A program made the translations under genes and the position numbers. The notes under the pieces are model-generated. The model was given only the letters and a program-made list of their open reading frames with translations. It ran no database searches and was not told the origin of the DNA. This document shows positions 4,120 through 55,025 of a stretch of 64,000 bases of DNA, in pieces. Numbering within the stretch: position 1 is the stretch's first letter; the number at the start of each line of letters is the position of its first letter. This DNA comes from an uncultured cyanobacterium (GTDB lineage: Bacteria; Cyanobacteriota; Cyanobacteriia; Phormidesmidales; Phormidesmidaceae): assembly GCA_963793265.1 (NCBI GenBank), contig CAWBZI010000007.1, forward strand, positions 352,001-416,000, given 5' to 3'.

Positions 4120-7100
4120 TTGATGGTGACTTCGTTTCAACGGAATAGACACATAGACGCTCATGCCCAAGCAAGCACGACTGGGGCGGAGGGTCTGCTG
4201 CGTAGCGTGGCGGAGGCGGCGCAGTGTTTGGTGGCGACTGAGAATTTGGCGGCGGCGATTCCGGCGGCGCTGAGGATTTTGGGGCTGGGGACGCGGCAGG
4301 ATCGGGTTTATGTGTTTGAGAATGTGTTTCCGAACGGGCCGGATGAGCTGTTTCTAGATTTGTTGTGTGAGTGGAATTCTTCTCATGGAATGCCTATCGC
4401 AGATATTGCAGAACAGTTTCCGTTTCCGGCAAATGCGTTTCCAAATGATTCAATCTCATTGCCTTTGAAAAGAGGTGAAGCTGTTCAATCTCTGACTCGG
4501 GATTTAGAAGGGCTTGCCGCAGAGATGAATAGAGACATACTCACAAAGTCTATGATTGTTGTTCCTATCTCAGTCGGCGGTTTGTACTGGGGATCGATTG
4601 GCTTTGATGACTGCACGACTGAGCGGGTGTGGAGTGCGGCGGAAGTGGCGGTGTTGGAGACGGCGGCGGCTTGTATTGGCAGTGCGATTGAAAGGGATCG
4701 CACGGCAAAGGCCCGCATGGCTGAGATGGAAGCGCATAATCAGGCGTTGGCGGAAAGGGATCGCATTTTAGAAGCCACGGCGGCGGCGGCGAATGTGATG
4801 CTGGTGAATGACGACTTTGAGAGCGCGGTGACTGAGGCGCTGCGAATTGTGGGCGAAGGCTTGGCGGTGGATCGGGTTGGTATCGGCAGCTACTTTGCGC
4901 AGACTTCTGAAGAAGATGGCTATCACGAGTTTTTGTATGAGTGGGATTCTGAAGGAACGAATGTACAGATAGAACATCCTGAACTATCAAAAATTAGTGA
5001 TCGTGGCATTGGGGATTTTATAAATGCGCTAAAAACAGGTCATGTCTTTGGCGGTGTCGTTGAAGAGATGGGAGAGCCTTTTCGCAGTAGCCAAATAGAG
5101 ATGGGTGTAAAGTCGGCATACGCTATTGCGATCATTGTTGCTGGTAAGTATTGGGGAGCAATAGCGCTTGATGATTGCCACAAGCAAACGCGCCGAAGCG
5201 AATCGGAGCTTGAGGCGCTCAAAACGCTGGCAAACTGTATCGGCAGTGCCATTGAGCGCGATCAAATTCGGGCGGCTCGGGAAGCGGCTGAGCGTACGGC
5301 CATTATTGAGCGAGAGCGGGCGGCGCGGGCGGATGAATTGGAAGCGGCCAATAAGGTGCTTTTGGTGCGCGATCGCTGGCTACAAACCACGGCTGCTGCC
5401 GCGAATGAGCTGCTTTCTACCACAGATGTGCCCGCGAGCGTGAATGCGGCGCTGGCAACGATTGGAGAAAACTTGGAGTGCGATCGCCTTTCTGTTCTTC
5501 GTTACATTGCAGATCACAAAAGCCATCCGTTAGGCGCAATGAAAGGGCTCTACGAGTGGGACGCTGAAGGTATTAAGCCTCAAATCGAAGACTCAGCGCT
5601 GAGCGTTATTACCGCTGAAGGTTTTGAGGACTGGTTCAAAACGCTACTTGCAGGTGATTGGATCGGCAGCAACGTCTCTGATTTGCCTGAACCTGCGCGC
5701 AGCGGTCAAGAATCGCTAGGCGTTTTATCTACCTACGCGGTGCCTATTTTTATAGATAACGCGCTTTGGGGCATTGTGGCGATGGACTACTGCCACGAAG
5801 AGAAGCGATTAGAAGGATCGGAGCTAGCGGTATTTCAGACGGCAGCGACCTGTGTGGGGAGTGCGATTCATCAGGCACAGGTGCGGCGAGATAAGGCAGC
5901 ACGGGAGCGATCGCGTTTACTCGGCAGCGTTGCTCAGGCGGCAAATTTGCTGTTGGAATCGTCAGACTATCAGAGTGTGCTTTCGGAGGTTGTGCGGTTG
6001 TTGGGTGAGGCGACTGGGAGCGATCGCTGTAGCATTTTGCAAGAGGTCATTATGTCTTCTTCTCAAGAACTCGGAGACACTGTAGTGACAGAATGGTGCA
6101 ATGCCGAAACGCAGCATTCAAAAGTGCATACCCCTGAGCTCTCAGATGCACTTTCCTGTCGGGTTATTCCTGAACTGCATGAGTCATTTTTATCAGGTGG
6201 AATTTCTAATGTTCTCGTGTCAGACTTGCAGGAGCCTGCGCGAACTATTCTCTCAGAGCAGGGAAATACTGCGATGATTTATGTCACTATCGTAGTTAAT
6301 GGCAAACCTTGGGGCGTTATTAGCTTTGATAACTGTGGTGAGCCTCGACTTTACGATGAGGCTGAGATTTCAATTTTGCAGATTGCAGCGGAGAGTATTG
6401 CCAGTGCGATTTCTCGTCAGGCTCAAGATAAAGCGCTGCGAGATGCTGAAAAATTCATCCTACAAGAACAAGAAAAGGCAGCTCGCGATCGCGCTACCAA
6501 ACTCGCCAAAACCAACGAAGCCATCAGCACCACCCTCACCACTCTCGCCACCCGCCCCGAACTAGACCAGTTCTTAGGCACTATCCTCAGCGAAATGGTA
6601 CGCCCTCTCGGAGCCTGCAAAGCTCATCTGTTCCTTTACGACCAGCCCACTCACACGCTAAGCCAGCGTGTAGTTATTCAAGACGATCAGCTCTATATGG
6701 GCGCAGGCCCAAATGATCCTGACATGTTCAAGCATCCTGTTTCAGCCGACATAACGGCTGCATGGGACGCAATCATCAATAGCAACAGACCGATCACCTA
6801 CGATGAAACTCTACCTTCTGACGAAAACATTTGGTGGCCCGAATCGCATCGACTTGGCATAAAGCACAAGGACACAAAGCCGTCACCTGTATCCCTCTGA
6901 AAGCAGGCGAACAGCCCATCGGCTACATCGGCTTTTGCTTTTACAATCACACCTTCCTCACCGACGAACAGCTCGAATTTATGCAGGCGCTCGCCAACCA
7001 AGCCATCATCGCCATCCAACTCACCCGCCTTGCCGACGACAGCAAAACCGCCGCGCTCTCGGTTGCCCTCACCGAAGAGCGCAACCGCCTCGCCCGCGAA

Positions 7101-7676
7101 ATTCACGACACCCTCGCCCAAGCCTTCACCGGCATCTCTCTCCAGCTCGAAGCCGCCAAAGGCAGCTTTGACGAAAGCACCGAAGACACCCTCTACCACA
7201 TGAACCGAGCCGGTAACCTCGCCCGCCGAGGACTCTCTGAAGCGCGTCGTTCAGTCAGAGCCCTGCGCTCAGCCGCCCTCACCACCAACACCCTCCCCGA
7301 AGCCCTCACCATCGCTCTCACCGAAATGACCCAAGACAGCCCCACCACCCCCCACCTACACATCGTCGGTACCCCCTACACCCTCCCCGAAGACATCCAA
7401 ACCAACCTCCTGCGCATCGGCCAAGAAGCCACCACCAACACCCTCCGACACGCCCAGGCCGACACCCTAAATATTACCCTCACCTACAAACCCACCCAAA
7501 TCCGCATGACCATCAGCGACGACGGCAAAGGCTGCGATATTTCTCTAGACAACGTAGAAGGCTTTGGCCTGCTAGGAATGCGAGAGCGCGTTCTGCGATT
7601 CGACGGTCAGTTTGCCTTATTTGGAACCCCCGGTAGAGGTACTGTAATAGAGATTGCCATTCCCCTCGACCTATGA
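4120..7676 (+). CDS. Multi-GAF sensor histidine kinase (HisKA_3/NarX type), split by a frameshift near 6847-6854
   Basis: Four repeated GAF units ending in variants of E..L.TAA.CIGSAI, a fifth GAF across the break, then ERNRLAREIHDTLAQ H-box and an HATPase (DDGKG, GFGLLGMRER). Confidence 0.88.
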
Positions 7677-8308
7677 ACACCCAGCCCGCTATCAAAGTCT
7701 TAGTCGTTGAAGATCACAACGTTGTCCGCGAAGGCATCGTGTCGATCATCAACCGGCAAAAAGACATGACAGTCGTCGCTGAGGCTCGTAACGGTCAGCA
7801 GGCTATTGATCTCCATCAGGCGCACGAGCCAGATGTCACCCTGATGGACTTGCGAATGCCCAAAATGGAAGGACTAGAGGCCATTATCCAAATTCGCCAG
7901 AGCCATCCCAAAGCCAACATCATCATCCTCACCACCTACGACACCGACGAAGACATCTACCAGGGATTGCAGGCCGGAGCGCGTGGCTACCTGCTAAAAG
8001 ACGCCACCACCGCCGAACTCATTGAGGCCATTCAGCAAGTGAGCAAAGGCAAGCGATCTTTACCCGCCAAAGTAGCCGATAAGCTGGTTGAGCGCATGGA
8101 AGCCGACGAGCTAACGCCCAGAGAAAAAGAAGTTTTAGCGCTGATGGTAAAAGGATCTAGCACCGCTAAACTGGCCGCAACCCTACATCTCTCCGAAGGC
8201 ACCGTCAAATTTCATATCAACAACATCTTTCAAAAGCTCGGCGTCAGCGATCGCGCCCAGGCCATCGTCGTCGCCCTCCGCAGAGGCATCATCCGCCTAG
8301 ATCCGTAA
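7673..8308 (+). CDS. NarL/FixJ-family response regulator
   Basis: VVEDH, LMDLRMP receiver, LTPRE...TVKFH LuxR HTH; ATGA overlap with the kinase. Confidence 0.95.
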   Translation: MNTQPAIKVLVVEDHNVVREGIVSIINRQKDMTVVAEARNGQQAIDLHQAHEPDVTLMDLRMPKMEGLEAIIQIRQSHPKANIIILTTYDTDEDIYQGLQAGARGYLLKDATTAELIEAIQQVSKGKRSLPAKVADKLVERMEADELTPREKEVLALMVKGSSTAKLAATLHLSEGTVKFHINNIFQKLGVSDRAQAIVVALRRGIIRLDP

Positions 8309-8345
8309 CTTCTTCTGCCGATTGAGCCTACCCTACCCCCGCAAA

Positions 8346-8365
8346 ACCTATCCGATCAGCTAGGT
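8346..8365. promoter_or_regulatory. Putative NarL-type operator ACCTA-N10-TAGGT
   Basis: Inverted repeat between the regulator and the DsbA-like gene. Confidence 0.4.
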
Positions 8366-12432: not shown

Positions 12433-13434
12433 TTATGGAATAGAAGCAACATTTTCAGTATCTTTCATCATTATTTCTGCTTTGGGATCTACATTTTTCG
12501 CGCTGCCAAGACTCGCGATCGCGACCCCCATAATAATCACCACCAAAGTCCCTAGCTGAGTAGCAGAAGGATATTCTCGATTGATTAAAAAAGCGTAGAC
12601 CACGCCAAACACCGGAGAGAGCACCGTCAGTCGGCCCACGATGCGAGAATCTAGATTGTTAATAGAGGCATACCAAAGGAACTGCGCAAAGACAATCACC
12701 ACCAGCGCATAAATAGACATCAGCGCCCAAAGCTGACCGCTGAAAGCATCGGCAAAATGATGAGGGCCAAAGAGCCTGAGCGCAATGAAGAAGAAAATAA
12801 CAGACGATAAAAAATTACGAGAGAACACCACCACCTGCAAACTTGCCGCATTTGCAATCATGAGCCGATTAATCAGTGCTGAGAGCGCAAATACCAGCGT
12901 AGAGAGCAGGATGAGAATATCGCCTTTATTGGTTTGAAACTGGCTGGTTTTGAGTGCGATCGCCACCACCCCCACCGTAATCAAAGAAAACCCAGCCCAC
13001 TCCAGCGGCCTGATCCGCTTGCCCAACACCATCGCCCCCACCAGTGCAAAAATCACCGGGCCGAGTCTTCCGAGCAGCACCGCATTGGTCACCGTCGTCT
13101 CTTGCAAGCCCAAAAAAATAAGCGCCGAGAGCAGCGTTGCCAGCGCTCCATTTAGCAGCAGGCCCAGCTTTACCTTTGGCCTGAGCGCTCTCATATCTGC
13201 CAGCAAAGCCCCAAAGCCAAACCAAAACCCCACCAGCAGCGCGGCAGAGAAATTGCCTACAAACAAAACATTGCAAAATGAAATAGGATGCTGAACGCCT
13301 CCGCTCAGCTCAGCCCCGCTGGTAATCAGCAGCGAAATCAACGCAGGACGCGCTGCCGACAGTGCCCGAGAGGCTACTAGCATCACCTGAGAATTCAGGG
13401 GCTTAGCGGAACGGTCGGCAGAAAAATCACTCAT
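12433..13434 (-). CDS. DMT/EamA-family transporter
   Basis: About 10 hydrophobic segments in two EamA-like repeats. Confidence 0.85.
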   Translation of the reverse strand: MSDFSADRSAKPLNSQVMLVASRALSAARPALISLLITSGAELSGGVQHPISFCNVLFVGNFSAALLVGFWFGFGALLADMRALRPKVKLGLLLNGALATLLSALIFLGLQETTVTNAVLLGRLGPVIFALVGAMVLGKRIRPLEWAGFSLITVGVVAIALKTSQFQTNKGDILILLSTLVFALSALINRLMIANAASLQVVVFSRNFLSSVIFFFIALRLFGPHHFADAFSGQLWALMSIYALVVIVFAQFLWYASINNLDSRIVGRLTVLSPVFGVVYAFLINREYPSATQLGTLVVIIMGVAIASLGSAKNVDPKAEIMMKDTENVASIP

Positions 13435-14708: not shown

Positions 14709-15110
14709 TTACCCCATCAAAATCACCGTATCAATCGCATGGATCATGCCATTGTCAGCCTCTATATCTGCGGCTACGACTGTCGCATTCTTCACCTCAA
14801 AATCAGGTTCAATACGTATAGGAATTGGAGAAGTTTCTAGCGAAGGCCAGCTCTCTTTCTCGGCTAGATCAGACTTTCGCAAGCTTCCAGCAACTACGTG
14901 ATACTTTAATATTCGAGCTAATTGAGGCGGATTATCCACCAGCGTTTGCACTGTACCCGGCGGCAGCTTCGCAAAAGCATCATCAGTGGGTGCAAACACC
15001 GTGAAAGGCCCGCCTGTTGCCAGCACCTCGACGAGCCCGGCAGCCTGCACGGCGGCGACTAGCGTAGAAAATCCTTCGGCATTTACGGCAATATCAACAA
15101 TACTTGGCAT
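14709..15110 (-). CDS. cupS: Fasciclin-domain NDH-1MS subunit CupS
   Basis: [11 protein letters not shown] and [10 protein letters not shown] fasciclin motifs; directly downstream of cupA. Confidence 0.88.
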
Positions 15111-15152
15111 GGTTTTCCTGTTTAATAGTTCTCTTAGGTGCCTCTCTCTAAC

Positions 15153-16445
15153 CTAACGATAATCCTGTGTTTGAATATCCATCAGTCTTGCTTCTGGTCT
15201 CTTAAATCGATCAAGCTGTTGCTCTAGAAACTGACGATTCGCCTTCAAATGCTCTACATTCTCATCATCTAGCGGATAAAGCAGCGCCATTCTTAATGCC
15301 TGAATTACTGCTGAGGTCACGTTGTACATAGAGCGCTGAAACGTAATTCCAAGCTGAATCAGCGCGTCGTCCTCCCCTCGCCCGTGCTGCTGATACATCT
15401 CTACTAGGTAATCTGGCAGAAAGTGCAGCATATCCTGCATGAGCAGCGTCGGCGGAATGCCCGCGCTGCCTACCGGAAAAACGTCTGCATAGAGAATGCC
15501 GTAGTGAAAGTCTTTTTGCTCGGCTGGAACCTGCCCGGCCTGGGCGTTGTAAGACTTTGTGCCTCTAAAGGGGGCAGTGCGATAGAAGACTGCTTCTACA
15601 TAGGGCAAAGCTGCCTCGTATAGCCAGGTAAAGCCCTGAGACTTAGGGATAATCTCAAAGCACTCATTACCAATATAAACGTGGTGGTAGATGGGACGAC
15701 CGGCTACTGCAAAAATGCCGTTTGAAATAAAGTCCATTGCCTCCGGGACAGTGGTCATTTTGCCTTCGTCGTAAAGGTCGCTCATCTCGAAGAATACGGG
15801 GGCCATCACCTCCCAAAACAGTCCTAAATTGGCGTAGTAGGAGAGTCTTTTGACCTGCTCTAAAAACATGTCAGGGAACAGCTTATAGAGGCCGAGCATC
15901 ACCGGATTGTTTTTGAAATAGGCGCGAATGGCGCGATCGCTATTCTCCCTATACTCCTCACTATCTAAATACTCATTAAACTTGGGATTGATATCCTCAT
16001 GCCAGAGCATTGCCTGCATACAGGCTTCAGCAAACTCCATATTCACCCGGTCGTGCCACAGGTGATGAAACAGCTTCGGCAGCTTGCGCTTAACTTCGCC
16101 CTCTTTCATAAAGGCTCGCAGTTCAGGATGCGCATCGCCTACACCGCGCCATATGCGCAAGTCGGCCTCATCTCCCGCATAGGCATTTTGACGATCTAAG
16201 TACTCGTCAGAAATGAAGTATTTGAAGGCGGGTAGAGGATTAAGGAAAACGCGCTCGGCGATATAGAGCAAGTCTCGCCAATAGAAGTCCATCGGCACCG
16301 CGTAGGCTTTGTATATACCGATAATTTGCTTGAGGTTTTCAGGCGTATCGGGCAGCATTGAGCCGCCTGCTTCGAGCCGATGAATAATATCGGCAAATTC
16401 GTGGCTAGAAGGTGGCAGCGTTTTTTTGAGGGTGGCAGTTTCCAT
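15153..16445 (-). CDS. cupA: CO2 hydration protein CupA (ChpY)
   Basis: HRLEAGGSMLPDTPENL, HDRVNMEFAEAC, PFRGTKSYNAQA; ATG 16445. Confidence 0.95.
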   Translation of the reverse strand: METATLKKTLPPSSHEFADIIHRLEAGGSMLPDTPENLKQIIGIYKAYAVPMDFYWRDLLYIAERVFLNPLPAFKYFISDEYLDRQNAYAGDEADLRIWRGVGDAHPELRAFMKEGEVKRKLPKLFHHLWHDRVNMEFAEACMQAMLWHEDINPKFNEYLDSEEYRENSDRAIRAYFKNNPVMLGLYKLFPDMFLEQVKRLSYYANLGLFWEVMAPVFFEMSDLYDEGKMTTVPEAMDFISNGIFAVAGRPIYHHVYIGNECFEIIPKSQGFTWLYEAALPYVEAVFYRTAPFRGTKSYNAQAGQVPAEQKDFHYGILYADVFPVGSAGIPPTLLMQDMLHFLPDYLVEMYQQHGRGEDDALIQLGITFQRSMYNVTSAVIQALRMALLYPLDDENVEHLKANRQFLEQQLDRFKRPEARLMDIQTQDYR

Positions 16446-16500
16446 GGGGGGTTTAGAGAGAGTAGGGAGTGGGGGGTTGGAGGTTAGAGAGCTTAAAAGG

Positions 16501-18015
16501 CTAAAGCGCGTTGGGAGCGCGAGCAGATGAAACGGTTGTTTTGTGTAGTGAAGCTTCAATTGCTGGCTGTATCAGCTTTACAGAGGTTGCCTCGCTCCAG
16601 TGCACTAGCCAGTTAGGCTGAAGTCCTAAGACAACAACCAAAGCCGCTAGTATCAACGCGGGCGTACGCTCGCTGACGGTGACTTTGTTGTAGTTCGCCG
16701 TTTGATTGTTCAACCGACCAAAACAGGTGCGATTGATCAAAATCACGAAATACACAGCCGTTAAGCCGGTACCTACCACACATAAGAGGGTCGCCACTGG
16801 AAACACGCTATAGCTGCCCTGAAAGACCAGAAATTCGGTGATAAAGCCAACCAGTCCCGGAATCCCAGCGCTCGCCATACCGCTTAGTACCAGCAGCGCG
16901 CTCACCATCGGCAGCCCTCGTAGCGGGTTCATTAATCCATTGAGCTGATCGAGCTGCCGGGTGCCGACTTTAGCTTCCACCACGCCAACTAGGTGAAACA
17001 ACAGCGCCAAAATCAAACCGTGAGACACCATCTGAGAAATCGCCCCGACCAGGCTCAGCTCTGTGAACGCTGCGCCGCCGAGCATCACGTAGCCCATGTG
17101 CCCAATCGAGCTGTAGGCCACCATGCGCTTGATGTCTTTTTGGGCGATCGCGGTTACCGCACCATACAAAACGCTCGCCGCCGCCCATACCGCTAACAAT
17201 GGAGAAAGCGCCGCCCAGGCATCGGGAAACAGCCCCAGGCCAAATCGAAAAATCCCATACGTGCCCAGCTTAGCCAATACGCCGCCTAGCATAATCGCCA
17301 CGGGTGGAGACGCACTCACATAGGTATCGGGTAGCCAGGTATGAAAAGGAATCAGCGGAATCTTGATGCCAAAGCCGACTAGCAGTATGGTCAGCAGCGT
17401 GATTTGAGCCGGTAGCGGTAGCTGATTTTGGAGCGCCTGCTCGTAGGAAAAGTCTAGGGTGCCGCCAAGGAGAACCGTGCCGATAAAGCCAGCGAAAATA
17501 AAAGCGCCTGCGATCGCGGTATACAACAAAAACTTCGTCGCCGCATACTCTCGCTTCTCCCCACCCCAAATCGAAACCAAAAAGTAGAGCGGCACCAGCT
17601 CGATTTCAAACAGCAGGAAGAACAACAGCAGGTTTTGTGCCAAGAACGCACCGGCTACACCGCCACTCACCAGCAGCATCAGCGCATAGAAAAACCGAGG
17701 GCGCTCCTGCGTTTTTGAACTGCTGCAAATGGCAATCCAGGTCAGCAAGCTGTTGAGCGCAATCATCATCAGCGAGAGCCCATCAACTGCCAAGTCGTAG
17801 TTTAGCCCCAGCGAGGGTAGCCACGACATAAACTCTCGCATTTGAAAGTCCGCGCTACCCATATCAAACTGCGTGAACAGTCTCATTGTCCAAAGCAGTG
17901 CGGTGCCTGAAAATGCCAGCGCCACGCCTCGAACCTGAGCGGCGTTGAGCTTTAGTGGGAGAAAGGCAATCAGCAGTGCGCCTAATGTCGGCAACCAGAT
18001 TAAGGGGCTCAGCAT
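16501..18015 (-). CDS. ndhD3: NAD(P)H-quinone oxidoreductase subunit 4 (NdhD3)
   Basis: NuoM motifs (IKIPLIPFHTWLP, KRMVAYSSIGHMG); operon context; ATG 18015. Confidence 0.93.
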   Translation of the reverse strand: MLSPLIWLPTLGALLIAFLPLKLNAAQVRGVALAFSGTALLWTMRLFTQFDMGSADFQMREFMSWLPSLGLNYDLAVDGLSLMMIALNSLLTWIAICSSSKTQERPRFFYALMLLVSGGVAGAFLAQNLLLFFLLFEIELVPLYFLVSIWGGEKREYAATKFLLYTAIAGAFIFAGFIGTVLLGGTLDFSYEQALQNQLPLPAQITLLTILLVGFGIKIPLIPFHTWLPDTYVSASPPVAIMLGGVLAKLGTYGIFRFGLGLFPDAWAALSPLLAVWAAASVLYGAVTAIAQKDIKRMVAYSSIGHMGYVMLGGAAFTELSLVGAISQMVSHGLILALLFHLVGVVEAKVGTRQLDQLNGLMNPLRGLPMVSALLVLSGMASAGIPGLVGFITEFLVFQGSYSVFPVATLLCVVGTGLTAVYFVILINRTCFGRLNNQTANYNKVTVSERTPALILAALVVVLGLQPNWLVHWSEATSVKLIQPAIEASLHKTTVSSARAPNAL

Positions 18016-18083
18016 AGTTTTATAGACAAGTTCTAAATTATATTGGCGTTGTTGAAAGATCCTGTGGGGCGCGAGGCGCAAGA

Positions 18084-18107
18084 GGGCGTAAGGTCTTACG
18101 CCCCTAC
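18084..18107. repeat. REP-like hairpin ending GCCCCTAC
   Basis: GGGCGTAAGGTCTTACGCCCCTAC in the ndhF3-ndhD3 spacer; same family as 13568-13703. Confidence 0.55.
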
Positions 18108-18121
18108 CGTTGGGGGGCAGG

Positions 18122-19984
18122 CTAGTGGAGGAGGCCCCAGCTTAGATATAGGCAGATTGCGGCTACAAAAGAGGCAATTGTTAGCGCATAGACCTGCGTT
18201 TTACCGCTGTTGGAATACTTCAGCGCCTCACCACTTAAAAGAGAAGACAGCCCGATGAAATTCACTAGCCCGTCTACTACATAGCGATCTAGCCAGTCGG
18301 TGAACTGAGAGAGTTTATCGACCGCGAAAATGGCGGTTAAGTCATAGATTTTGGGCGTGTAGAAGTCGTAGGCAAGCAGGCGATTAAGGACGGGAGAAAG
18401 CAGCTTTTCTGGTTTCTCTACGCGTCGCAAAATGTAGAAATTAGCCGCGATCGCAATTCCCACCACGCTCGACAAAAACAAAGGCCATCCCAACGCCCAG
18501 CTCAGCGTCACATCCGCCGGGAACAGCGAAAAGTTTCGGATGATAAACGGCATATGCAGCGTCAGTCCGGCCATAGTAGCCATCGGTAAAACAACGAGCC
18601 ACAGCGGCTCGGGCGCGCGGTTTGTCATGGGGGTGCGATCGCCTGCAAACATCAGGCCAAACATCCGCACCAGCGCAAACGCCGCCACCCCGTTAGCTGC
18701 AATCACAACGCCAATAACACCCCACTGACCCTGCGCCTGTAACCCTTCTAAAATCACCATCAGCGACCAAAAACCACCAAAAGGCGGCAGCGCCACCAGC
18801 CCCACAATTCCCACCAAAAAAGAGAATCCTGTCACCGGCCTGGGACGCCAGAGCCCGCCCATCTGAGTCAAATCCTGAGTCACCACATTGAAAAGCACAG
18901 ACCCCGTACTCATCAGCAGCAGCGCTGTTGCCACCGCATGAGTCAGCACCAACAGCAGCGCTGCCGTGGCCTGCCCCGTGCCCACCGCGATAAAAATCAG
19001 CCCCATATAGGCGCTCGCCAGGTAAGAGAGCACCCGCTTCGCATCAATTTGAGCGGCTGCAATCAACGTACCGCCCAGCGCACTGATCGCCCCAATCGCC
19101 ACCGCCACACCAGAGGCCCAGGGCGAAAGCGAAATCACTGGTTCTAGCTTCACCAGCACCCAGGCTCCAGTGGCCACCACCACCGAGTTTCTTAGAATAG
19201 TCGTCGGCAATGGCCCTTCCATTGCCTCGTCAAGCCATAGATGCAGCGGAAACTGAGCGCATTTACTCACCGGCCCAGCTACCAGCGCAATCCCAATCAG
19301 CGCCAGCGTTAGTGACTGCGGCCCGACCTCCATCAAAGGCACCTGCTGCGCCCATTCAGCCAGCTCGCTAAACCGCCAGGTTCCCGTCAGCGGATACAGT
19401 GCCAGCACCCCCATCAACAGAATCAAGTCACCAATCCGCTTTGTCAAAAAAGCATCTCGTGCACCGCTCACCACCAGCGACTGATTAAACCAGAAGCCCA
19501 CAATCAGGTAGGTTCCTAGCGTCAAAATCTCCAACAGAATGTAGCTAAAGAACAGCGAATCGCACAGCACCAGCGCCGTCAGCCCCGCCTCAAACAAAGC
19601 CAGCAGCGAATACATCCGCCCCCAGCCCCAATCCATCTCCAAATAGCCCACCGCATAAACCTGCACCAGCAGATTCAGCACCGTAATCACCACGCTCGCC
19701 CCCAGCGTCAGCGCCGACAGCTCTAGCGGCAAAACCAGGTTCAAGTCAGCGACATGAAGCCAGGAAAGCGTTAAAAACTGCTCGGGCTGATGCCACACCG
19801 CTGCCAGCGCTACGCTGCTATGAACCAGCGCCACCACCGTCAGCAGCAGGTTGATATATCCCACCGGACGGGGGCCAGTGCGGCGAATGAGCGCTGGCGA
19901 CCAAAAAACAGAGAGCGCAGCGCCCAATAGGGGATAGCAGGGAATCAACCAGCTTGTTTGGGCGAAAACGTCAGCATTTATCAT
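18122..19984 (-). CDS. ndhF3: NAD(P)H-quinone oxidoreductase subunit F (NdhF3)
   Basis: RRTGPRPVGY, KCAQFPLHLWLDEAMEGP, YDFYTPKIY; first gene of the cupA operon. Confidence 0.95.
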   Translation of the reverse strand: MINADVFAQTSWLIPCYPLLGAALSVFWSPALIRRTGPRPVGYINLLLTVVALVHSSVALAAVWHQPEQFLTLSWLHVADLNLVLPLELSALTLGASVVITVLNLLVQVYAVGYLEMDWGWGRMYSLLALFEAGLTALVLCDSLFFSYILLEILTLGTYLIVGFWFNQSLVVSGARDAFLTKRIGDLILLMGVLALYPLTGTWRFSELAEWAQQVPLMEVGPQSLTLALIGIALVAGPVSKCAQFPLHLWLDEAMEGPLPTTILRNSVVVATGAWVLVKLEPVISLSPWASGVAVAIGAISALGGTLIAAAQIDAKRVLSYLASAYMGLIFIAVGTGQATAALLLVLTHAVATALLLMSTGSVLFNVVTQDLTQMGGLWRPRPVTGFSFLVGIVGLVALPPFGGFWSLMVILEGLQAQGQWGVIGVVIAANGVAAFALVRMFGLMFAGDRTPMTNRAPEPLWLVVLPMATMAGLTLHMPFIIRNFSLFPADVTLSWALGWPLFLSSVVGIAIAANFYILRRVEKPEKLLSPVLNRLLAYDFYTPKIYDLTAIFAVDKLSQFTDWLDRYVVDGLVNFIGLSSLLSGEALKYSNSGKTQVYALTIASFVAAICLYLSWGLLH

Positions 19985-26183: not shown

Positions 26184-27092
26184 TCACGCTAAAATTCTAC
26201 CGGCTGCGCCCCCCACCGAAGCAGGCAGGCCCAGCACAATTATATTGCCTAGCCACTCTTGCCACGGGTCGCTGCTGCTAAGCTGCTGAAAGAAAACCAG
26301 CATCAGCGTAGACGCACCCAGCACCACAATATACGTCACCAGCGTCTCAGTTAGCGGGCTCAGCAGCAACCCTCTTTGGGCCCGTTCGCTGCGATCGGTA
26401 AAGCCCGAGGCAAACACAATTACATAGGAAATTAGCAGAGAGGCCGCCATAATTAGCAGCAGCCACAGCGACGGCAGACCCGAGGCGATAATTGCAATTT
26501 CTTCAGTGGGGGCAATGCTAAAGGCGATCACAATCGCGCCAATAATCGTTGCATCGATGTCGGCTAGCGTATCGCCTAGCACACCGCGAAAGCTCACCGT
26601 CGTCGGCAAAAAGGTAGGGGCAGCCTCAATCGTACGGCGCGTGCTCGCCCGGCGACGCTCTAGGGTAGAGCGGGCTAAGGTGACGCCCAGTGAAAAGGGA
26701 ACGCCTTCAAAAATCAGCTTGCCCAGCGCCTCTGAAAGCGGCGTTTCTAGCGTGATGCGGCGGAGCAAGAGTAGGGCGATCGCAGCGCAAATAATGCCAA
26801 TCCCCAGCGCCTCAATGCTTTCTAATACCGTCTCAATGGGATTGATGGAGAGCGATCGCCTAAATCCCTCAATCTGAGTCAGCAGCAGCACCACTACAAA
26901 CGTCACCGCCTGCACCACCAGCAGCCGCAGCGAATCTGTCGAAGACCCAATTGCCCACACCTCGACCGTATACAGCAGCGGAATGCCAAACAAAAAGCTT
27001 CCCGCCGCCCCCCGCAAAATCGCCCGCAGCTCCTCTGTCCACATATTGCTAGGGGTCTTTAGTGGAAATGATTCTAAGGGCTCTTGAGGCAT
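26184..27092 (-). CDS. TIGR02587-family integral membrane protein
   Basis: GSFLFGIPLLYTVEVW, IAPTEEI, LGLPASVGGAAGR. Confidence 0.85.
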   Translation of the reverse strand: MPQEPLESFPLKTPSNMWTEELRAILRGAAGSFLFGIPLLYTVEVWAIGSSTDSLRLLVVQAVTFVVVLLLTQIEGFRRSLSINPIETVLESIEALGIGIICAAIALLLLRRITLETPLSEALGKLIFEGVPFSLGVTLARSTLERRRASTRRTIEAAPTFLPTTVSFRGVLGDTLADIDATIIGAIVIAFSIAPTEEIAIIASGLPSLWLLLIMAASLLISYVIVFASGFTDRSERAQRGLLLSPLTETLVTYIVVLGASTLMLVFFQQLSSSDPWQEWLGNIIVLGLPASVGGAAGRILA

Positions 27093-27374: not shown

Positions 27375-28130
27375 ATGACAGTAGCATTTCGCACACAGCA
27401 ACATCCCTGCCCCTTTGCTCAAAAGATCTTTCGACCGATGGCTGCTGTTGTTCTTACGGGACTATCTAGCTTTTTGCTGGCAGGCTGCAACCCTTCTAAT
27501 TTGGTTGCCCAAGGCATTGAGCGAGAGCTACCCAAATATGTCGGCCCGGCTGATAATTACGATGTAGACATTGAAGGGCTAAGCGTACGAGAAGGCAGTG
27601 CTAAAAGCGTGGTAGCGGTAGGCGAGCGGGTGCGGCCCGAGGGAGCCCCGGTTATCGATCAGTTGTCCTTGGATTTGCAAGATGTGGTATATGACCGGGA
27701 GGCTGAGCGGCTGAGTGAGGTTGGCGCTGTGCGACTCACTGCTGTGATTAAGACAGATGACTTGGCCGATTTTTTGGAGGCTTATCGCAATGTGCGCGAG
27801 GCTGAGGTGATGTTGCGATCGCCCGACCAGGCCACTATTCGCTTGCGTCCTCAAGTCGGCAATCTTGCCGTCCCTCCTGGTATCACCGTTGATGTTGGGG
27901 GCCAAATTGTCGGCCAGGGCACTCAGCTCAGGTTTGAAGTAGACAAAGTAACCGCCGCTGGATTCGACCTGAGCAACCTTGCCGCGCGCCGCCTTTCGGA
28001 TGTGATTAATCCTTTAGCTGATTTGCAAGAGCTACCTGTAGATGTGAATATCACTTCTGTTGTTGTTGCGGGTGAAACAATTGGCTTGGAAGTGGTGGGC
28101 GATCCTAGCAGCTTTGAAATGGAGCTTTGA
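27375..28130 (+). CDS. Putative lipoprotein, DUF2993/LmeA-like
   Basis: Lipobox LLAGC followed by a beta-rich domain; start uncertain (27288, 27375 or 27438). Confidence 0.65.
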   Translation: MTVAFRTQQHPCPFAQKIFRPMAAVVLTGLSSFLLAGCNPSNLVAQGIERELPKYVGPADNYDVDIEGLSVREGSAKSVVAVGERVRPEGAPVIDQLSLDLQDVVYDREAERLSEVGAVRLTAVIKTDDLADFLEAYRNVREAEVMLRSPDQATIRLRPQVGNLAVPPGITVDVGGQIVGQGTQLRFEVDKVTAAGFDLSNLAARRLSDVINPLADLQELPVDVNITSVVVAGETIGLEVVGDPSSFEMEL

Positions 28131-28466
28131 GTAGCTACGGTTTGTTGTTTGCGATGTGTTTAGTGTTGGTCGGTTGGTGGTTTGGGTTGCTGACCCACCC
28201 CGTCGCTGCGCGCCACCCCTCCCAAAAGGGGATCTACTTCAGGAGAGGAAAATCAAAGGGGTCTCTTTCGATCTTTAACTTGCTCGTAGCCAGGACAGAT
28301 CTTATCTTGGGAGAACGCATTAACGATGTAGTTTCGTTCACTTTTCTTTTATAGCTCCTTTTTCTATCTAAGTGATCGCTATAAACGGTTGATAAAGTGA
28401 CCTGACAGAACTACTGAAGGGAGATGGTATAGATTATTGTAAGAGCTACTGCCAAGCTTTCATTAA

Positions 28467-28863
28467 ATGAGTATCAACTTCGGTCTTTATGCGCTGCTAA
28501 TTGTAATTCCATTAGTCCTGCATCTCATCACGCGAACTGCGATCATAAGCTTTCGCGACCGGCGACCCGCAAAGCTTTTAGCGGTCATATACAGACGCCA
28601 GCATCGAAAGATAATAGGATTGCTCTTGCTAATACTTGTTTTATCGCCGCCGTGGTGGACTCGGTTTGGGCCACAAACTGCGTGGCAACAGGAATCTTTT
28701 ATTCCTTGCGGAAGCCCATTGGCAATGGAAAACGATGTACTTCTAGTGGGTGGAACAGCAGGGCATCACGTATATATCCTGCGATATCAAAAAGGTCGCT
28801 GGATAGAGGAAGCTGCTTTTGTACGCGAGGTGAATAAATCCGAGAAAGTGAGGATTGTTGAGC
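28467..28863 (+). pseudogene. Membrane-anchored FG-GAP-like protein truncated at an IS remnant
   Basis: Two TM segments, then GSPLAMENDVLLVG...HVYILRY...WIEEA; the frame runs directly into transposase sequence. Confidence 0.4.
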
Positions 28864-29158
28864 CTTTATCACAGCAAATACAACCCCATAGAACGATGCT
28901 GGGGTGTGCTTGAACAACACTGGAATGGTACTCAACTTATCGACTTGCCCACTATGCTTATTTGGGCTAAGAGCATGCGGTGGAAAGGCACTTATCCCAC
29001 CATCAAATTGAATCCATTGATTTATAAAAAAGGGATCGCTTTGACAAAACAACAGATGAACACAATTGAAGCGCGATTAGAACGACATCCTGACCTGCCA
29101 AAATGGGACATTTTTATTCGACCCGCTTAAACGGTAGCTTTATTCTTGGAAACTACCT
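28864..29158 (+). mobile_element. 3' remnant of an ISAzo13-like transposase with probable right end
   Basis: YHSKYNPIERCWGVLEQHWNG...YKKGIALTK...LPKWDIFIRP to TAA 29130, then TTATTCTTGGAAACTACCT as candidate terminal repeat. Confidence 0.8.
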
Positions 29159-29972: not shown

Positions 29973-30068
29973 GGAAGGTGCTGACACGAACAAAGGAAAA
30001 TGCTTTTCAATTCTGTGACGGTATTTACATCTCAATAGTAGATAACAGATACATACTAGGAAATAATT

Positions 30069-34643: not shown

Positions 34644-34675
34644 AGATAAGCGAAAATTTCTGAAGGTATGTTCGT

Positions 34676-34715
34676 AAAGTAGGCGATGGATAAAGATGTA
34701 TCTGTCGCCTACTTT
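34676..34715 (+). terminator. Hairpin terminator after the RTX gene
   Basis: AAAGTAGGCGATGGATA-aagatg-TATCTGTCGCCTACTTT. Confidence 0.7.
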
Positions 34716-35123
34716 CATAGGGAAATGCGATCGCTACCCATAAGCAAAAATTGCAACGTGACTAATGCTACAGGCCGCTAGCAGATAATGACAGTCGCGC
34801 GGTATGCTTGAGGCTTGAGCAAAAAAGTTGTGCCGAGCACGTCAATAGCTATCTGCTTCGAGACGGCTTGCTTCAAATTGTGAATCTTTAATATCTGTCC
34901 TTATATCGCCTTGTATCCACTCGCTATTCAACTGCCTTTCATCTTTGGTCTTACGCTGCTACTCCCCTGCATTCTCTACCCGTAGACCTTATTCGCACAT
35001 CACCGCTCCTTCTAGTCTCTTTGTAACTTAGTTCCTCCATTTGCTTGCCGGAATGTAGCTTTGGCCTGTAGTTTTGGCCCGCCGCTATACTCCGCCGCCA
35101 TTGCCCCTCCAGGTACCTCTCAC

Positions 35124-36884
35124 ATGTCTACGCCCGTCCAATCTTTCCAAGATCTCGCCCTCATCGATCCCGTGCTGCAAGCGCTCAACGATGCTGGCTA
35201 CGAAACCCCCACCCCCATTCAAGCCAAAACCATTCCCCCCCTCATCGAAGGGCGAGACATCATCGGCCAGGCCCAAACCGGCACCGGCAAAACCGCCGCC
35301 TTCGCCCTGCCCATCCTCTCCCACATCGACACCTCCAATAACCGCCCCCAAGCGCTCGTACTCGCCCCCACCCGCGAGCTAGCCCTTCAGGTCGCAGAAG
35401 CCTTTCAGGGCTACGGCAAGCACATCAACGGCTTTCACGTCCTGCCCATCTACGGCGGACAGAGCTACCAAATTCAGCTCAAGCAGCTTAGACGCGCGGC
35501 CCATGTCGTCGTCGGCACACCAGGGCGAGTCATCGACCACATCAAGCGTGGCACCCTCGATCTGTCGAACCTAAAGTATCTGGTGCTAGACGAAGCCGAC
35601 GAAATGCTGCGGATGGGCTTTATTGACGATGTGGAATGGGTGCTAGGCCAAACCCCACCGACTCGGCAAATCGCGCTGTTTTCAGCGACCATGCCGCAGG
35701 TAATTCGCAAAATCGCCCAAAAGCACCTCGATAATCCCATCGAGATTTCCATTCAAAACAAATCCAAAACAGCAGACACCATTCGTCAGCGCTTTTGGTC
35801 AGTCAGCGGCTACCACAAGCTCGATGCGCTCACCCGCATTTTAGAAGTCGAAGCCTTCGACGGCATGATCGTGTTCGTGCGGACTAAAGTCGCCACCGTA
35901 GAGCTATCTGAGAAGCTAGAGGCCAGAGGCTACAACACCGCGCCGCTGAGCGGAGACGTGCCGCAAAACCAGCGTGAGCGGACGGTGGACAGGCTGAAAA
36001 AAGGCAAGCTCGATATTTTAGTCGCTACCGATGTTGCCGCCCGTGGCCTCGACGTAGAGCGCATTAGCCACGTGATTAATTACGATATGCCCTACGACCC
36101 GGAGGCTTACGTGCACCGGATTGGGCGAACTGGGCGAGCTGGGCGTAAGGGTGAGGCCATTTTGTTTGTTACCCCTCGTGAAAAGCGCCTGCTCAATTCG
36201 TTAGAGCGCTCTACTAAGCAAAGGATTGAGCGGATGGAAATGCCGTCTACGGAGACAGTGAATAACCAGCGGATTGCCCGGTTTAAGCAGCGGATTACAG
36301 ATACGCTGGCTGAAGAAGATTCTGATTTCTTCAAGCGGATTGTGGAGCAATATGAGCAGGAGCACGATATCCCCGCTCTAGAGGTTGCCGCTGCGCTGGC
36401 GCATTTGCTACAGGGTGACGAGCCGTTGCTATTAGAAGAGCGGGCTACGCCTCAAAGAGGGCGAGATGGTGACTATAGAGATCGTAACGGGCGCGATCGC
36501 GGTGGCCCCGGCATGAACGGTCAAACTAGCGTCGGCATGGAGCGCTTTAGAGTGGAAGTAGGCCGCAGTCATAACGTAAAGCCAGGGCATATTGTGGGCG
36601 CGATCGCCAACGAAACCGGCCTCGCCAACCGCCACATCGGCAAAATCAGCATCGAAGACGACCACAGCACCGTTGATCTGCCAGTGGGCATTCCCAAAGA
36701 AACCTTTGAGCTGCTGCAAAAGGTATCGGTACTAGGCCATCCGATGAATATTTCTAGCCTGGGCGAAACCCGCGACGATGGGAACTGGCGCGAGGGTAGA
36801 CCCGCTAAGCGTAGGCGGAGAAGTGGGCCGACGAGTCCACCGAGAAAGAAGCATCGGCCTAGTAAAGAGAAACCTCAGACGTAA
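35124..36884 (+). CDS. deaD: DEAD-box RNA helicase DeaD/CsdA
   Basis: Q motif, AQTGTGKT, PTRELA, DEAD, SAT, HRIGRTGR, DbpA-type C-terminal RNA-binding domain; ATG 35124. Confidence 0.92.
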   Translation: MSTPVQSFQDLALIDPVLQALNDAGYETPTPIQAKTIPPLIEGRDIIGQAQTGTGKTAAFALPILSHIDTSNNRPQALVLAPTRELALQVAEAFQGYGKHINGFHVLPIYGGQSYQIQLKQLRRAAHVVVGTPGRVIDHIKRGTLDLSNLKYLVLDEADEMLRMGFIDDVEWVLGQTPPTRQIALFSATMPQVIRKIAQKHLDNPIEISIQNKSKTADTIRQRFWSVSGYHKLDALTRILEVEAFDGMIVFVRTKVATVELSEKLEARGYNTAPLSGDVPQNQRERTVDRLKKGKLDILVATDVAARGLDVERISHVINYDMPYDPEAYVHRIGRTGRAGRKGEAILFVTPREKRLLNSLERSTKQRIERMEMPSTETVNNQRIARFKQRITDTLAEEDSDFFKRIVEQYEQEHDIPALEVAAALAHLLQGDEPLLLEERATPQRGRDGDYRDRNGRDRGGPGMNGQTSVGMERFRVEVGRSHNVKPGHIVGAIANETGLANRHIGKISIEDDHSTVDLPVGIPKETFELLQKVSVLGHPMNISSLGETRDDGNWREGRPAKRRRRSGPTSPPRKKHRPSKEKPQT

Positions 36885-48805: not shown

Positions 48806-48808
48806 CCT

Positions 48809-49990
48809 ATGGTGCATAATTCTCTCGACTGCCCTATCTGTAACGCTTTGGTTAGCGATGTCTTCATTGAACTGCTGAATTTACCTATTTACTGCAATCT
48901 TCTATGGTCAGACCAACAGGCTGCAAGGGACTGTCCTAAAGGAGATATCAAACTGGCCTTTTGCGATCAGTGTGGTGCCATATTTAACACTGCTTTTGAT
49001 CCGGCAAAGCTAGGCTATTCTCAGGACTACGAGAATTCCTTGCACTACTCTAGCCGCTTTCAAAGCTATATAGAAGACTTAGCGCAGCGACTGGTGAGTG
49101 AGCATCATTTGCAAAATAAAACCATCCTTGAAATTGGCTGCGGTAAAGGAGACTTTCTGGTGCTGCTGTGTGAGCTAGGCAATAATTCAGGCGTTGGTTT
49201 TGACAATAGCTATGTTGAGCGAGCTGAACATAAGGCGCTGAGCGGGCAGATTGAGTTTATTAAAGACTTTTACTCGGAGCGCTACGCAGACTACCCAGCC
49301 GATTTTGTATGCTGTCGGCAGGTGTTAGAGCATATTCAAAAGCCCGATGATTTGCTGAGGCCGCTGCGCCAGACGCTAAAAGATCGGCCAGCTACAGACG
49401 TCTTCTTTGAGGTACCCAACGCGCTCTACACCATTGGTAACCTAATGATCTGGGACATTATCTATGAGCACTGCACTTACTTTACGCCGGTTTCTTTGCG
49501 CTATGCGTTTGAAGCGGCAGGTTATGAAGTAGGCCCGATCAAAGAAGAGTTTGCTGGGCAGTTTTTGAGTATTGGTGCAAAGGCTGGGAAGGTGGGGCGA
49601 TCGCTTACGGTAGACAAGAACGCGATCGCCCAACTCACCGCAGACATCGCCCACTTTGAAGAACGCTTCCATGCACACACACAGCAGTGGAAAGCACGCT
49701 TAAGCAAGCTATCTCAACAAGGCAAAAAGGCAGTCGTCTGGGGATCTGGCTCAAAAGGCGTCACGTTTTTAAACCTATTAGCGTCCGACAGCAATATTGA
49801 ATACGCGGTAGATATCAACCCCCGTAAGCAAGGTAAGTTCATTCCCGGTACCGGGCAAGCGATTGTGCCGCCCGAGCGCATGGCCCACTATCAGCCAGAC
49901 GTGGTGATTGTAATGAATCCGTTGTACAAGCAAGAGATCGCAGACAGCTTGCAGGCGATGGGATTAACGCCAACTATTGTAGGGGTATAG
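48809..49990 (+). CDS. C-methyltransferase-like protein 3
   Basis: CPIC...CDQC, EIGCGKG, CRQVLEH, DIIYEH, WGSGSKG; clear paralogue of the previous gene. Confidence 0.88.
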   Translation: MVHNSLDCPICNALVSDVFIELLNLPIYCNLLWSDQQAARDCPKGDIKLAFCDQCGAIFNTAFDPAKLGYSQDYENSLHYSSRFQSYIEDLAQRLVSEHHLQNKTILEIGCGKGDFLVLLCELGNNSGVGFDNSYVERAEHKALSGQIEFIKDFYSERYADYPADFVCCRQVLEHIQKPDDLLRPLRQTLKDRPATDVFFEVPNALYTIGNLMIWDIIYEHCTYFTPVSLRYAFEAAGYEVGPIKEEFAGQFLSIGAKAGKVGRSLTVDKNAIAQLTADIAHFEERFHAHTQQWKARLSKLSQQGKKAVVWGSGSKGVTFLNLLASDSNIEYAVDINPRKQGKFIPGTGQAIVPPERMAHYQPDVVIVMNPLYKQEIADSLQAMGLTPTIVGV

Positions 49991-51419: not shown

Positions 51420-51440
51420 AGAGATTGTTGGTAATAGGCG

Positions 51441-53020: not shown

Positions 53021-53119
53021 AAGAGTTGAGAAATATATGAACGCCCTCATTCTGCACAGAATAGATAGCGCATGACATCACCAACACGGCTAGGAACAAC
53101 CTGCCCGAATGGCTAGGGC

Positions 53120-54040: not shown

Positions 54041-54116
54041 GGCCTATCAAGAGAGTGCAGCAATTTTTCGATAACATGATTTACGAACAATACTAAAAAT
54101 TGAGGCAAAAGGTCTA

Positions 54117-55025
54117 ATGACTTCAGATTATCCTCGCGATTTGATTGGCTATGGGCAAAACCCCCCTCATCCACAGTGGCCCGACCAAGCTCGGCTCGCG
54201 CTTCAGTTTGTTATTAACTACGAGGAAGGCGGCGAAAACTGTATTCTGCACGGCGATGCAGCCTCAGAGTCTTTTCTATCTGAAATTATCGGCGCCGAGC
54301 CATTGCTAGGCGTGCGCAACTTAAACATGGAATCGATGTACGAATATGGCAGCAGAGCTGGATTTTGGCGGCTGCATCGGTTGTTTACTACGCGAAATTT
54401 GCCGCTGACCGTCTATGCGGTGGCGATGGCACTAGCGCGAAATCCAGATGCGGGTAAAGCGATGGTAGAGGCTGGGTGGGAGGTTGCCAGCCACGGCTAT
54501 CGCTGGATTGACTATCAGTATGTTGGAGAAGATGTGGAGCGATCGCACATTCAAACAGCCATCGACATCCACACCCAAGTCATCGGCACCCGCCCACTAG
54601 GTCTTTATCAGGGCCGCGTCAGCCCCAATACGCGCCGCTTGCTAGTAGAAGAAGGCGGCTTTCTGTACGACGCTGACAGCTACGCCGACGACCTACCCTA
54701 CTGGAATCACGACTACAACAAACCACATCTAATCATCCCCTACACCCTCGACAATAACGATATGCGCTTTGCCACCGCCCAAGGCTTTAACTCAGGCGAT
54801 CAGTTTTTCACCTACTTACGAGACGCCTTCGATACGCTCTATGCCGAAGGCGAGCAAGCGCCTAAAATGATGAGCGTGGGTCTGCACTGTCGGCTATCAG
54901 GCAGACCCGGAAGAGCCGCAGCGCTCGCAAAGTTTTTAGACTACGTGCAAAGCCATGAGAGCGTTTGGATTTGTCGGCGTGTAGACATTGCTCGGCACTG
55001 GCACGAGCATCACTCACCGGCATAG
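54117..55025 (+). CDS. puuE: Allantoinase PuuE (polysaccharide-deacetylase fold)
   Basis: YPRDLIGYG, INYEEGGE, YEYGSRAGFWR, SHGYRW, GLHCRLSGRPGR. Confidence 0.93.
   Translation: MTSDYPRDLIGYGQNPPHPQWPDQARLALQFVINYEEGGENCILHGDAASESFLSEIIGAEPLLGVRNLNMESMYEYGSRAGFWRLHRLFTTRNLPLTVYAVAMALARNPDAGKAMVEAGWEVASHGYRWIDYQYVGEDVERSHIQTAIDIHTQVIGTRPLGLYQGRVSPNTRRLLVEEGGFLYDADSYADDLPYWNHDYNKPHLIIPYTLDNNDMRFATAQGFNSGDQFFTYLRDAFDTLYAEGEQAPKMMSVGLHCRLSGRPGRAAALAKFLDYVQSHESVWICRRVDIARHWHEHHSPA

Follow-up and report, generated by a model that had tools for sequence, protein, structure and literature searches.

The octamer GCGATCGC, known as HIP1, is the centre of a strand-polar flip in base composition in the genome of an uncultured cyanobacterium of the family Phormidesmidaceae: on each strand, sequence 5' of the site is rich in G and sequence 3' of it is rich in C. 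We analysed this flip in a stretch of 64,000 nucleotides (positions 352,001–416,000 of contig CAWBZI010000007.1, assembly GCA_963793265.1; hereafter the window) and in the 5.68-Mb assembly of seven contigs to which it belongs (G000). The flip is real, strong and widespread, and we found no description of it in the open-licence PubMed Central and bioRxiv literature, a search outside of which lie supplements and most subscription papers, including the early ones on HIP1. HIP1 is described as known for ~30 years and present about once per kb in most cyanobacteria without an established function (PMC5861425, PMC13756078). The footprint demonstrates the action of a directional DNA process at HIP1, reveals the polarity of this process and two length scales for it, and makes the ideas of repair, recombination, DNA uptake and chromosome structure separable by their predictions.

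Base composition around HIP1 in the genome and in the window

The genome carries ~6,900 copies of HIP1, 39 times the expectation of a third-order Markov model, in line with the over-representation stated in the original prediction, a note made from the window sequence alone. The skew of the flanks at +11..+60 was 0.145 (z = 77.9) and was positive at 81% of 6,888 sites. Counted genome-wide on each strand, the C–G skew 3' of HIP1 fell from 0.36 at 0–5 bp to 0.18 at 10–20 bp, 0.07 at 75–100 bp and 0.009 at 500–1,000 bp, and the A–T skew close to the site was only 0.04–0.07. The footprint is antisymmetric about HIP1, G-rich 5' and C-rich 3' on each strand, as expected from the mirror symmetry under reverse complement that had been claimed for it.

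Analysis of control words over the same +11..+60 interval showed nothing comparable. Among palindromic octamers, 165 of 256 (HIP1 included) had at least 20 sites and could be tested, and the 164 others reached a maximum |z| of 2.9; for 60 control hexamers |z| stayed within 4.2. Sixteen control tetramers were slightly negative (size ≤0.008), as expected of points between HIP1 sites. There was no flip at gene midpoints (n = 4,783, skew 0.001), and profiles were flat around non-HIP1 codings of Ala-Ile-Ala, Asp-Arg and Arg-Ser (−0.003, −0.005 and −0.012, respectively) and around CGATCG outside HIP1 (n = 483); GATC outside HIP1 (n = 8,877) had no footprint either. None of the outcomes that the original prediction had set against itself beforehand (a flat profile around HIP1, or a flip at control octamers or gene midpoints) occurred.

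In the window, we compared the G+T content of the 40 bases to the left and the 40 bases to the right of each of the 71 HIP1 sites. The left flank was richer in G+T at 55 of the 71 (with three ties) and, after removal of nine hand-picked sites, still at 46 of 62. At these 62 sites the G–C component amounted to 6.7 bases per site (standard deviation of the null 0.8), a value reached by none of 5,000 random draws, and the T–A component was a marginal 1.65 (P = 0.03). The predicted change from G/T-rich to C/A-rich sequence is thus genuine, but it is almost wholly one of G against C, with T against A weak. All nine coordinates named for hand-picked examples were correct, as were the flanks quoted for the site at 54539; the left flank at 6485 is in fact A/C-rich and that at 36600 neutral. 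The features are as follows (no strand is assigned to any of them, and paired values are for the left and right flanks per 40 bp).

6400..54800: region of the original prediction, with 54 HIP1 sites, 42 of them flipped; the feature is genome-wide and not bounded here
6485..6492: HIP1 within a GAF-domain gene; strong C/A richness to the right but no G/T richness to the left
12956..12963: HIP1 within an EamA-family gene of the minus strand; clear flip, +14/−28
18635..18642: HIP1 in a minus-strand gene for an NADH dehydrogenase/antiporter membrane subunit; clear flip, +10/−20
26852..26859: HIP1 within a DUF2391 gene of the minus strand; flip, +4/−16
27815..27822: HIP1 within an LmeA-like gene of the plus strand; flip, +14/−6
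36600..36607: HIP1 within a DEAD-box helicase gene of the plus strand; C/A-rich to the right, 0/−20
49597..49629: two HIP1 copies, at 49597 and 49622, within a methyltransferase gene of the plus strand; the flip spans the pair
54539..54546: HIP1 whose flanks were quoted in the original prediction; flip, +10/−18
54479..54606: example of a footprint zone, with a steep component of ~60 bp per side and a weaker tail to ~1 kb, the extent being taken from the genome-wide fit
24277 (..24284), 26524, 28372, 37912, 45361 and 59427: six GTGATCGC/GCGATCAC words, read at the level of the class as decayed HIP1

Anatomy of the footprint and its dependence on the site

Genes were taken from an ad hoc open reading frame caller without curated annotation (4,783 genes, 86% coding). 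The flip had been said to occur in genes of both strands and to be carried largely by synonymous positions, and the data agree on both counts. The skew was strongest at fourfold-degenerate sites, where C made up 0.457 and G 0.113 of the bases at 0–10 bp 3' of HIP1 (skew 0.61), followed by skews of 0.47, 0.38, 0.26 and 0.17 in successive bins to 150 bp; A and T hardly changed. The fourfold skew was the same whether the strand 3' of HIP1 was coding or template, which rules out a transcription-coupled origin. Purines accounted for ~0.37 of the fourfold sites on the 3' strand. The skew was 0.35–0.39 for HIP1 in each of the three reading frames and 0.23 for intergenic HIP1. All 14 neighbour contexts with enough data were shifted (log C/G 0.67–1.32), as were both twofold classes (by 0.42–0.68), so that the footprint cannot be ascribed to one lesion in one context. 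Codon positions 1 and 2 were also shifted near HIP1, and so was amino-acid usage, with Thr (log ratio +0.32), His, Asn, Ile and Pro up and Met, Glu, Val (each ~−0.32) and Gly down. The genome therefore carries a kilobase-scale sawtooth in codon usage, amino-acid composition and GC-skew plots that is ignored in evolutionary and origin-mapping analyses.

The decay with distance d was described by the log-odds kernel 1.25 exp(−d/56) + 0.49 exp(−d/900), with a long component of 900±59 bp. A single exponential was rejected (chi-square 1,203 on 16 degrees of freedom), and the fit with two exponentials is still imperfect (chi-square 45.7). A model using the nearest HIP1 on each side was better by 142 log-likelihood units (448,455 sites) than one that added up three per side. 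Where another HIP1 lay within 60 bp behind the first, it contributed just 0.05±0.05 log-odds, and an additive model of neighbouring sites is ruled out for the short component; at 200–1,500 bp, second and third sites still contributed 0.05–0.08 log-odds. The nearest-site rule and the negligible contribution of a second site would both follow if a mismatch set off a search for the HIP1 closest to it.

Composition near HIP1 behaves like an antisymmetric potential (C/G 1, C/T 0.54, A/G 0.54, A/T 0.08). Away from HIP1, fourfold GC skew varied regionally from −0.29 to +0.31 per 100 kb (contigs C1, C4 and C6 of G000), a variation taken as replicative by assumption, as the assembly is in seven contigs. 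The HIP1 effect adds to this regional skew without interaction (slope 0.85 near the site, 0.75–0.95 far from it), and its contrast is about three times the regional one in log-odds. The two signatures differ, with an A/T share of 0.08 at HIP1 and of 0.39 in the regional skew.

Among 12 one-base variants of HIP1, GTGATCGC stands out with a skew of 0.105; three others were weakly positive (0.024–0.043) and eight flat. Precursors matching HIP1 at seven of eight positions with the CGATCG core intact were near zero (0.026, −0.002 and −0.005). The GTGATCGC word is 3.5-fold over-represented in the genome, and its skew equals that of a class in which 71% of members are decayed HIP1 with a full footprint. 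We read the GTGATCGC/GCGATCAC class as HIP1 decayed by C-to-T change at a presumably methylated cytosine. Blocks aligned to relatives at ≥70% identity show the same dependence on the site: the skew was 0.49±0.03 at HIP1 sites common to the genome and its relatives (n = 75) and 0.44±0.04 at HIP1 sites without a counterpart in relatives (n = 48), the latter near-full value suggesting fast equilibration, compared with 0.08±0.04 where the relative alone has HIP1 (n = 51) and 0.007 at those of the latter positions that differ from HIP1 at three or more bases (n = 37). Because the footprint is kept at GTGATCGC and is missing where a distant relative alone has HIP1, the skew follows the presence of HIP1 and not vice versa.

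The process acting at HIP1

The only class of explanation left standing is a strand-polar process anchored on HIP1, as originally proposed, though it may either start or end there: the footprint is found at silent sites, is independent of strand and frame, decays smoothly with distance, follows the site and is seen in recent substitutions. The footprint with its polarity, its two length scales, the nearest-site rule and the dependence on the site are all direct observations, as are its independence from transcription direction and regional skew and the asymmetry of recent rates in one genus.

The recent substitutions come from genomes G350 and G319, aligned over 466 kb at 93% identity, with G291 as the outgroup (298 kb at 84%); the outgroup covers 298 of the 600 kb of the trio, which limits the power of these tests. 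Changes in the window's own genome could not be polarized, as none of 45 congeners searched was more than ~80% identical. Other candidate sets were set aside: the quartet G004/G009/G011/G429 had poor synteny (one pair aligned over 25 of 100 kb), the genera of G039 and G093 were too divergent, and a close group of six genomes was too fragmented. By parsimony, at fourfold sites 0–30 bp 3' of HIP1, T>C changes (0.071) exceeded A>G changes (0.018; P = 0.0004), against a background of ~0.045 for each. A lean in the same direction, short of significance, was seen for G>C/C>G and A>C/T>G but not, at fourfold sites, for G>A/C>T. In a likelihood fit to 59,380 fourfold sites of G350 and G319 with the G291 outgroup, lowering one set of changes on the 3' strand (A>G, C>T, C>G, C>A, T>G and A>T), to about half the rate beside HIP1, gave a 2ΔlnL of 33.1 with one parameter. 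The corresponding values were 26.6 for a uniform slowdown (one parameter), 14.5 for a two-way bias (two parameters) and 3.6 for a rise in the complementary changes (one parameter, wrong sign); in a joint fit with the lowered set, the term for raised changes was −0.10±0.14. For outgroup-covered sites only, they were 15.2 (one-strand), 8.6 (slowdown), 11.6 (two-way), 0.0 (raised) and 18.6 (two-way with slowdown). In pooled parsimony counts at 0–60 bp the one-strand set was lowered (201 changes against 240 expected). The one-strand repair model thus beats added mutagenesis in this three-genome analysis. Added mutagenesis is disfavoured, and repair and conversion are not separated by the substitution data; of the 'mutational or repair' process that had been proposed, the data lean to repair or conversion.

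We give about even chances to the reading that mismatch repair uses HIP1 as a polar site of entry or of strand discrimination. After replication, the new strand would be opened at the nearest HIP1, and one-directional correction would follow along it, for the most part over ~60 bp and more weakly as far as ~1 kb. Errors on the strand 3' of HIP1 would be removed more often than those on the strand 5' of it and, because mispairs are not symmetric, the strands would drift apart, the one 3' of HIP1 becoming C-rich and G-poor and the one 5' of it the mirror image. The agent may be repair of the MutS/MutL type or nick translation, with a nick presumably made at HIP1 and hemimethylation presumably marking the strand. 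The commonest polymerase errors are G-containing mispairs, which is why a tract running 5' to 3' appears likely; the sign of the footprint would be the same for a tract that ran 3' to 5' and removed C-containing mispairs.

Several observations weigh against repair as the source of the footprint. A two-way bias combined with a slowdown fits the substitutions as well (2ΔlnL 36.5, three parameters), and these data come from one related genus other than that of the window's genome. In the pooled parsimony counts the complementary changes were raised (221 against 166 expected), and a free fit raised G>C (+0.97±0.36); repair alone cannot raise rates. Total substitutions at 0–25 bp from HIP1 had an observed/expected ratio of 0.83 compared with 0.90±0.085 for conserved control octamers, and 22% of 300 control sets reached the value for shared HIP1, so that the drop in rate is weak once controlled. 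No interaction with leading or lagging strand was seen through the slope on regional skew, even though a nick tied to replication might be thought to have its larger effect on the leading strand. Searches of five genomes, G000 included, found Vsr (PF03852) in none and NucS (PF01939) above the cut-off in none, with one sub-threshold NucS match in G029, a genome that lacks the skew; no nicking enzyme was identified in these searches for Vsr and NucS, and MutH was not searched for. MutH is reported to be lacking in all cyanobacteria examined (PMC5101192). Finally, a comparison across methyltransferase sets, suggested with the original prediction, showed no significant difference in the strength of the skew between classes of cytosine methyltransferase found (Kruskal P = 0.28), and in 13 of 80 genomes, with no match to either of the two methylase families described below, the median ratio used for the breadth survey was still 1.36.

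Biased heteroduplex conversion is a possible but rather unlikely alternative to repair at replication. In this scenario HIP1 would set one end of recombination tracts arising in natural transformation or between chromosome copies within polyploid cells. The strand 3' of HIP1 would be the incoming one and, with G-containing mismatches corrected and C-containing ones escaping, G mismatches would be corrected back while C:C, A:C and C:T survive; C alleles would win and G alleles lose on the 3' strand, as in a strand-polar GC-biased gene conversion. The antisymmetric potential, the parsimony counts that move both up and down, the shifted amino-acid usage, the lack of dependence on regional skew and the fast equilibration suggested by unshared HIP1 sites (0.44 compared with 0.49) all favour it. 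However, the pure two-way model fits worse than the one-strand model despite its additional parameter, the 56-bp scale is short for transformation tracts, and ordinary break-and-resect recombination toward the donor would predict the opposite sign. Local mutagenesis, in which the strand 5' of HIP1, left single-stranded by a nick or break at the site, is deaminated (C>T, A>G), or in which resynthesis is error-prone, is improbable: the sign of the transition skew in the twofold classes is the one that deamination predicts, and parsimony counts of T>C and G>A are raised on the 3' strand (92/58 and 84/69), but the raised-rates model gains little with a negative coefficient, divergence beside HIP1 is lower or unchanged rather than higher, and the purine share on the 3' strand is beyond the reach of transitions alone.

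Selection on the flanks is similarly improbable, be it, for instance, on behalf of a HIP1-binding or HIP1-wrapping protein with a preference for G-rich followed by C-rich DNA, or in favour of a hairpin or a longer palindrome. It would also lower divergence near HIP1, and HIP1 itself is conserved (kept at 136 of 154 coding sites between G350 and G319, compared with 62% of 32,941 control octamers). Table 3 of Elhai (PMC4390886) includes palindromic extensions, GGCGATCGCC among them, whose adjacent base has the same polarity. On the other hand, the footprint decays smoothly to 1–1.5 kb in all contexts and is retained at decayed GTGATCGC sites, and the complementarity of mirror positions around HIP1, whatever their distance, does not exceed what composition gives (0.256 observed and 0.256 expected at 10–30 bp), which rules out an extended palindrome or hairpin. 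An artefact of coding or placement, whereby HIP1 lies in particular amino-acid contexts or arises where composition already flips, can be discarded almost with certainty. Codon positions 1 and 2 and amino acids do shift, but the skew is strongest at fourfold sites, equal in the three frames and present between genes; the controls with synonymous non-HIP1 codings, seven-of-eight precursors and positions where only the relative has HIP1 refute it.

The closest precedents in the literature are Elhai's palindromic extensions of one to three bases and repair hypothesis, in the main text of PMC4390886. There, G-methylC-directed mismatch repair is proposed to start from a nick at methylated HIP1 and to cover ~1,000 nt, the reach cited for methyl-directed repair in its section 3.4. 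The motif and presumably the methylases are the same as here, and ~1,000 nt matches the 900-bp component; the hypothesis, however, explains the abundance of HIP1 and, in the terms of the main text, involves neither polarity nor flank skew. The strings 'skew' and 'asymmetr' are absent from that main text and from the available part of PMC5861425. Moreover, seven-of-eight sites, predicted there to be active, have no footprint here.

The Dam/MutH system of Escherichia coli uses the nearest methylated GATC and excises in both directions over ~1 kb. The HIP1 effect resembles it in that a methylated palindrome would mark the strand, the nearest site is used and the reach is ~1 kb. It thus works like site-directed mismatch repair yet fails two features of Dam/MutH, the use of any GATC and bidirectionality: GATC outside HIP1 is flat, the effect is polar with a steep 56-bp component, and MutH, which Dam/MutH repair needs, is reported absent. 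The antisymmetry of the footprint argues against bidirectional excision, since symmetric repair would be expected to leave no skew. In very-short-patch repair by Vsr/Dcm, a site-specific nick is followed by a short one-directional patch, and oligomer frequencies are shaped as they are here, but no Vsr was found in the five genomes, the presumed 5-methylC-to-T product accumulates here and the tract is longer. Reversals of skew are also found at replication termini and at meiotic double-strand-break hotspots; they share with HIP1 a change of sign centred on a site and, for termini, the polarity, whereas HIP1 makes ~6,900 flips per genome on a scale of 60 bp to 1 kb and with a different signature. 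Chi sites, DNA uptake sequences and HIP1-enhanced transformation (10.1101/2024.09.10.611283) likewise involve an abundant short word tied to recombination, but Chi is polar by being non-palindromic and HIP1 is a palindrome, methylated in many cyanobacteria, with a mirror-image footprint. The effect of HIP1 on transformation is reported there to be independent of addAB, and the available part of that source does not mention flank composition.

We tentatively suggest, at somewhat less than even chances, that cyanobacteria have a hitherto undescribed MutH-independent, site-anchored and one-directional system of correction or conversion. A protein opening DNA at HIP1 would then drive the fixation of alleles within ~60 bp. 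If so, such fixation reshapes synonymous and amino-acid composition genome-wide, and the footprint is the first direct record of HIP1 action, with polarity and tract length.

Breadth among cyanobacteria, methylases and other features

For other genomes we counted HIP1 followed at +11..+18 by eight non-G or by eight non-C bases and took the ratio of the two counts; in G000 this way of counting agreed exactly with the script used for the genome-wide analysis (2,066). The non-G count was run on 400 genomes of the class and both counts on 80, chosen by eye as HIP1-rich with about one per genus; 320 genomes, among them all HIP1-poor ones, lie outside the scored set, and with G000 added the set is 81. 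This ratio uses one distance and no control motif per genome, and kin are not independent. It exceeded 1 in 78 of the 81 genomes; z was above 3 for 62 of them, below −3 for one and between these bounds for 18, and 23 of 27 families had a significant member. The median was 1.40 and the range 0.83–3.56 (G000, 2.74); this approximately four-fold variation among lineages is a trait for finding the responsible genes. All 11 genomes smaller than 4 Mb had ratios of ≤1.23, and genome size correlated with the ratio (Spearman 0.44, n = 80), a correlation subject to the non-independence of kin and to a dependence of the ratio on GC content. Samples of 20 kb from 19 genomes were too small for profiles of single genomes.

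Ratios of 0.83 in G332 and G228 (z −3.9 and −2.5) raise the possibility of a weak reversed polarity in some lineages. Other iterated words are GGCGCC, GCWGC, CAGGCCTG and GGGATCCC, of which GGCGCC and GCWGC were scored for skew. Under Elhai's hypothesis the effect should move to the word that takes the place of HIP1. In G351, GGCGCC replaces HIP1, with counts of 1,806 and 1,955 (ratio 0.92), a value that is uninformative because its congener G332 lacks HIP1 skew too; at locus L201 of G351 it often lies within CGGCGCCG (36 and 18 copies in 15 kb). Other members of this genus have HIP1 or are rich in GGCC/CAGGCCTG (G138). Among HIP1-poor genomes, GCWGC is enriched in G192 (L199), where it was flat in 15 kb, and CAGGCCTG/GGCC in G042 (L202). 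In a HIP1-rich genus, G365 and G404 (L198, L173 and L174) have lost HIP1, with no CGATCG in the 28 kb sampled and no clear replacement word; they lend themselves, as a natural experiment, to gauging how quickly the footprint is lost. Six close genomes (L179–L184, 87–95% identical) have 9–15 CGATCG and 2–3 HIP1 per 4 kb and are suited to asking whether the CGATCG hexamer alone leaves a footprint.

A match to Dam-type methylase was present in all five genomes searched, in G000 on the 128-kb contig C3. G000 also has a conserved C5 methylase (L002:1354-2778, contig C4) and a conserved N4/N6 methylase (L207:1276-2310, contig C1). The C5 methylase was found in 26 and the N4/N6 methylase in 47 of 80 genomes, largely exclusively (odds ratio 0.095), with both in six, as in G000; the survey missed the C5 methylase of G332, of which a 40%-identical copy is present. 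This complementary spread fits the m5C and m4C enzymes for CGATCG described in the main text of Elhai (PMC4390886), if these are indeed the targets. Presence of the C5 methylase goes with the 3.5-fold excess of GTGATCGC, compared with 1.5-fold in a genus without it. Neither family had a match in G029, which has no skew (1.04), but other such genomes are skewed. A MutL C-terminal domain was found in 79 of the 80 other genomes surveyed.

Several words are almost totally avoided in G000 (GGCGCC, 9 copies; GCCGGC, 10; ACTAGT, 22; AGGCCT, 60; GCATGC, 84 in 5.68 Mb). Together with the eight matches to C5 methylases in this genome, they probably reflect several restriction systems.

Two further features of the window deserve mention. 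Positions 27823-34726 are a 6.9-kb stretch without HIP1; only five of 6,883 gaps between HIP1 sites in the genome are this long, the median being 586 bp. It contains a gene for a protein of 1,524 amino acids (30069-34643, plus strand) with RTX calcium-binding repeats and a von Willebrand A domain, and is possibly a recent acquisition. A CO2-uptake gene cluster at 14709-19948 on the minus strand comprises a ChpXY (CO2 hydration) gene and two genes for NADH dehydrogenase membrane subunits, and is conserved across the genomes searched.

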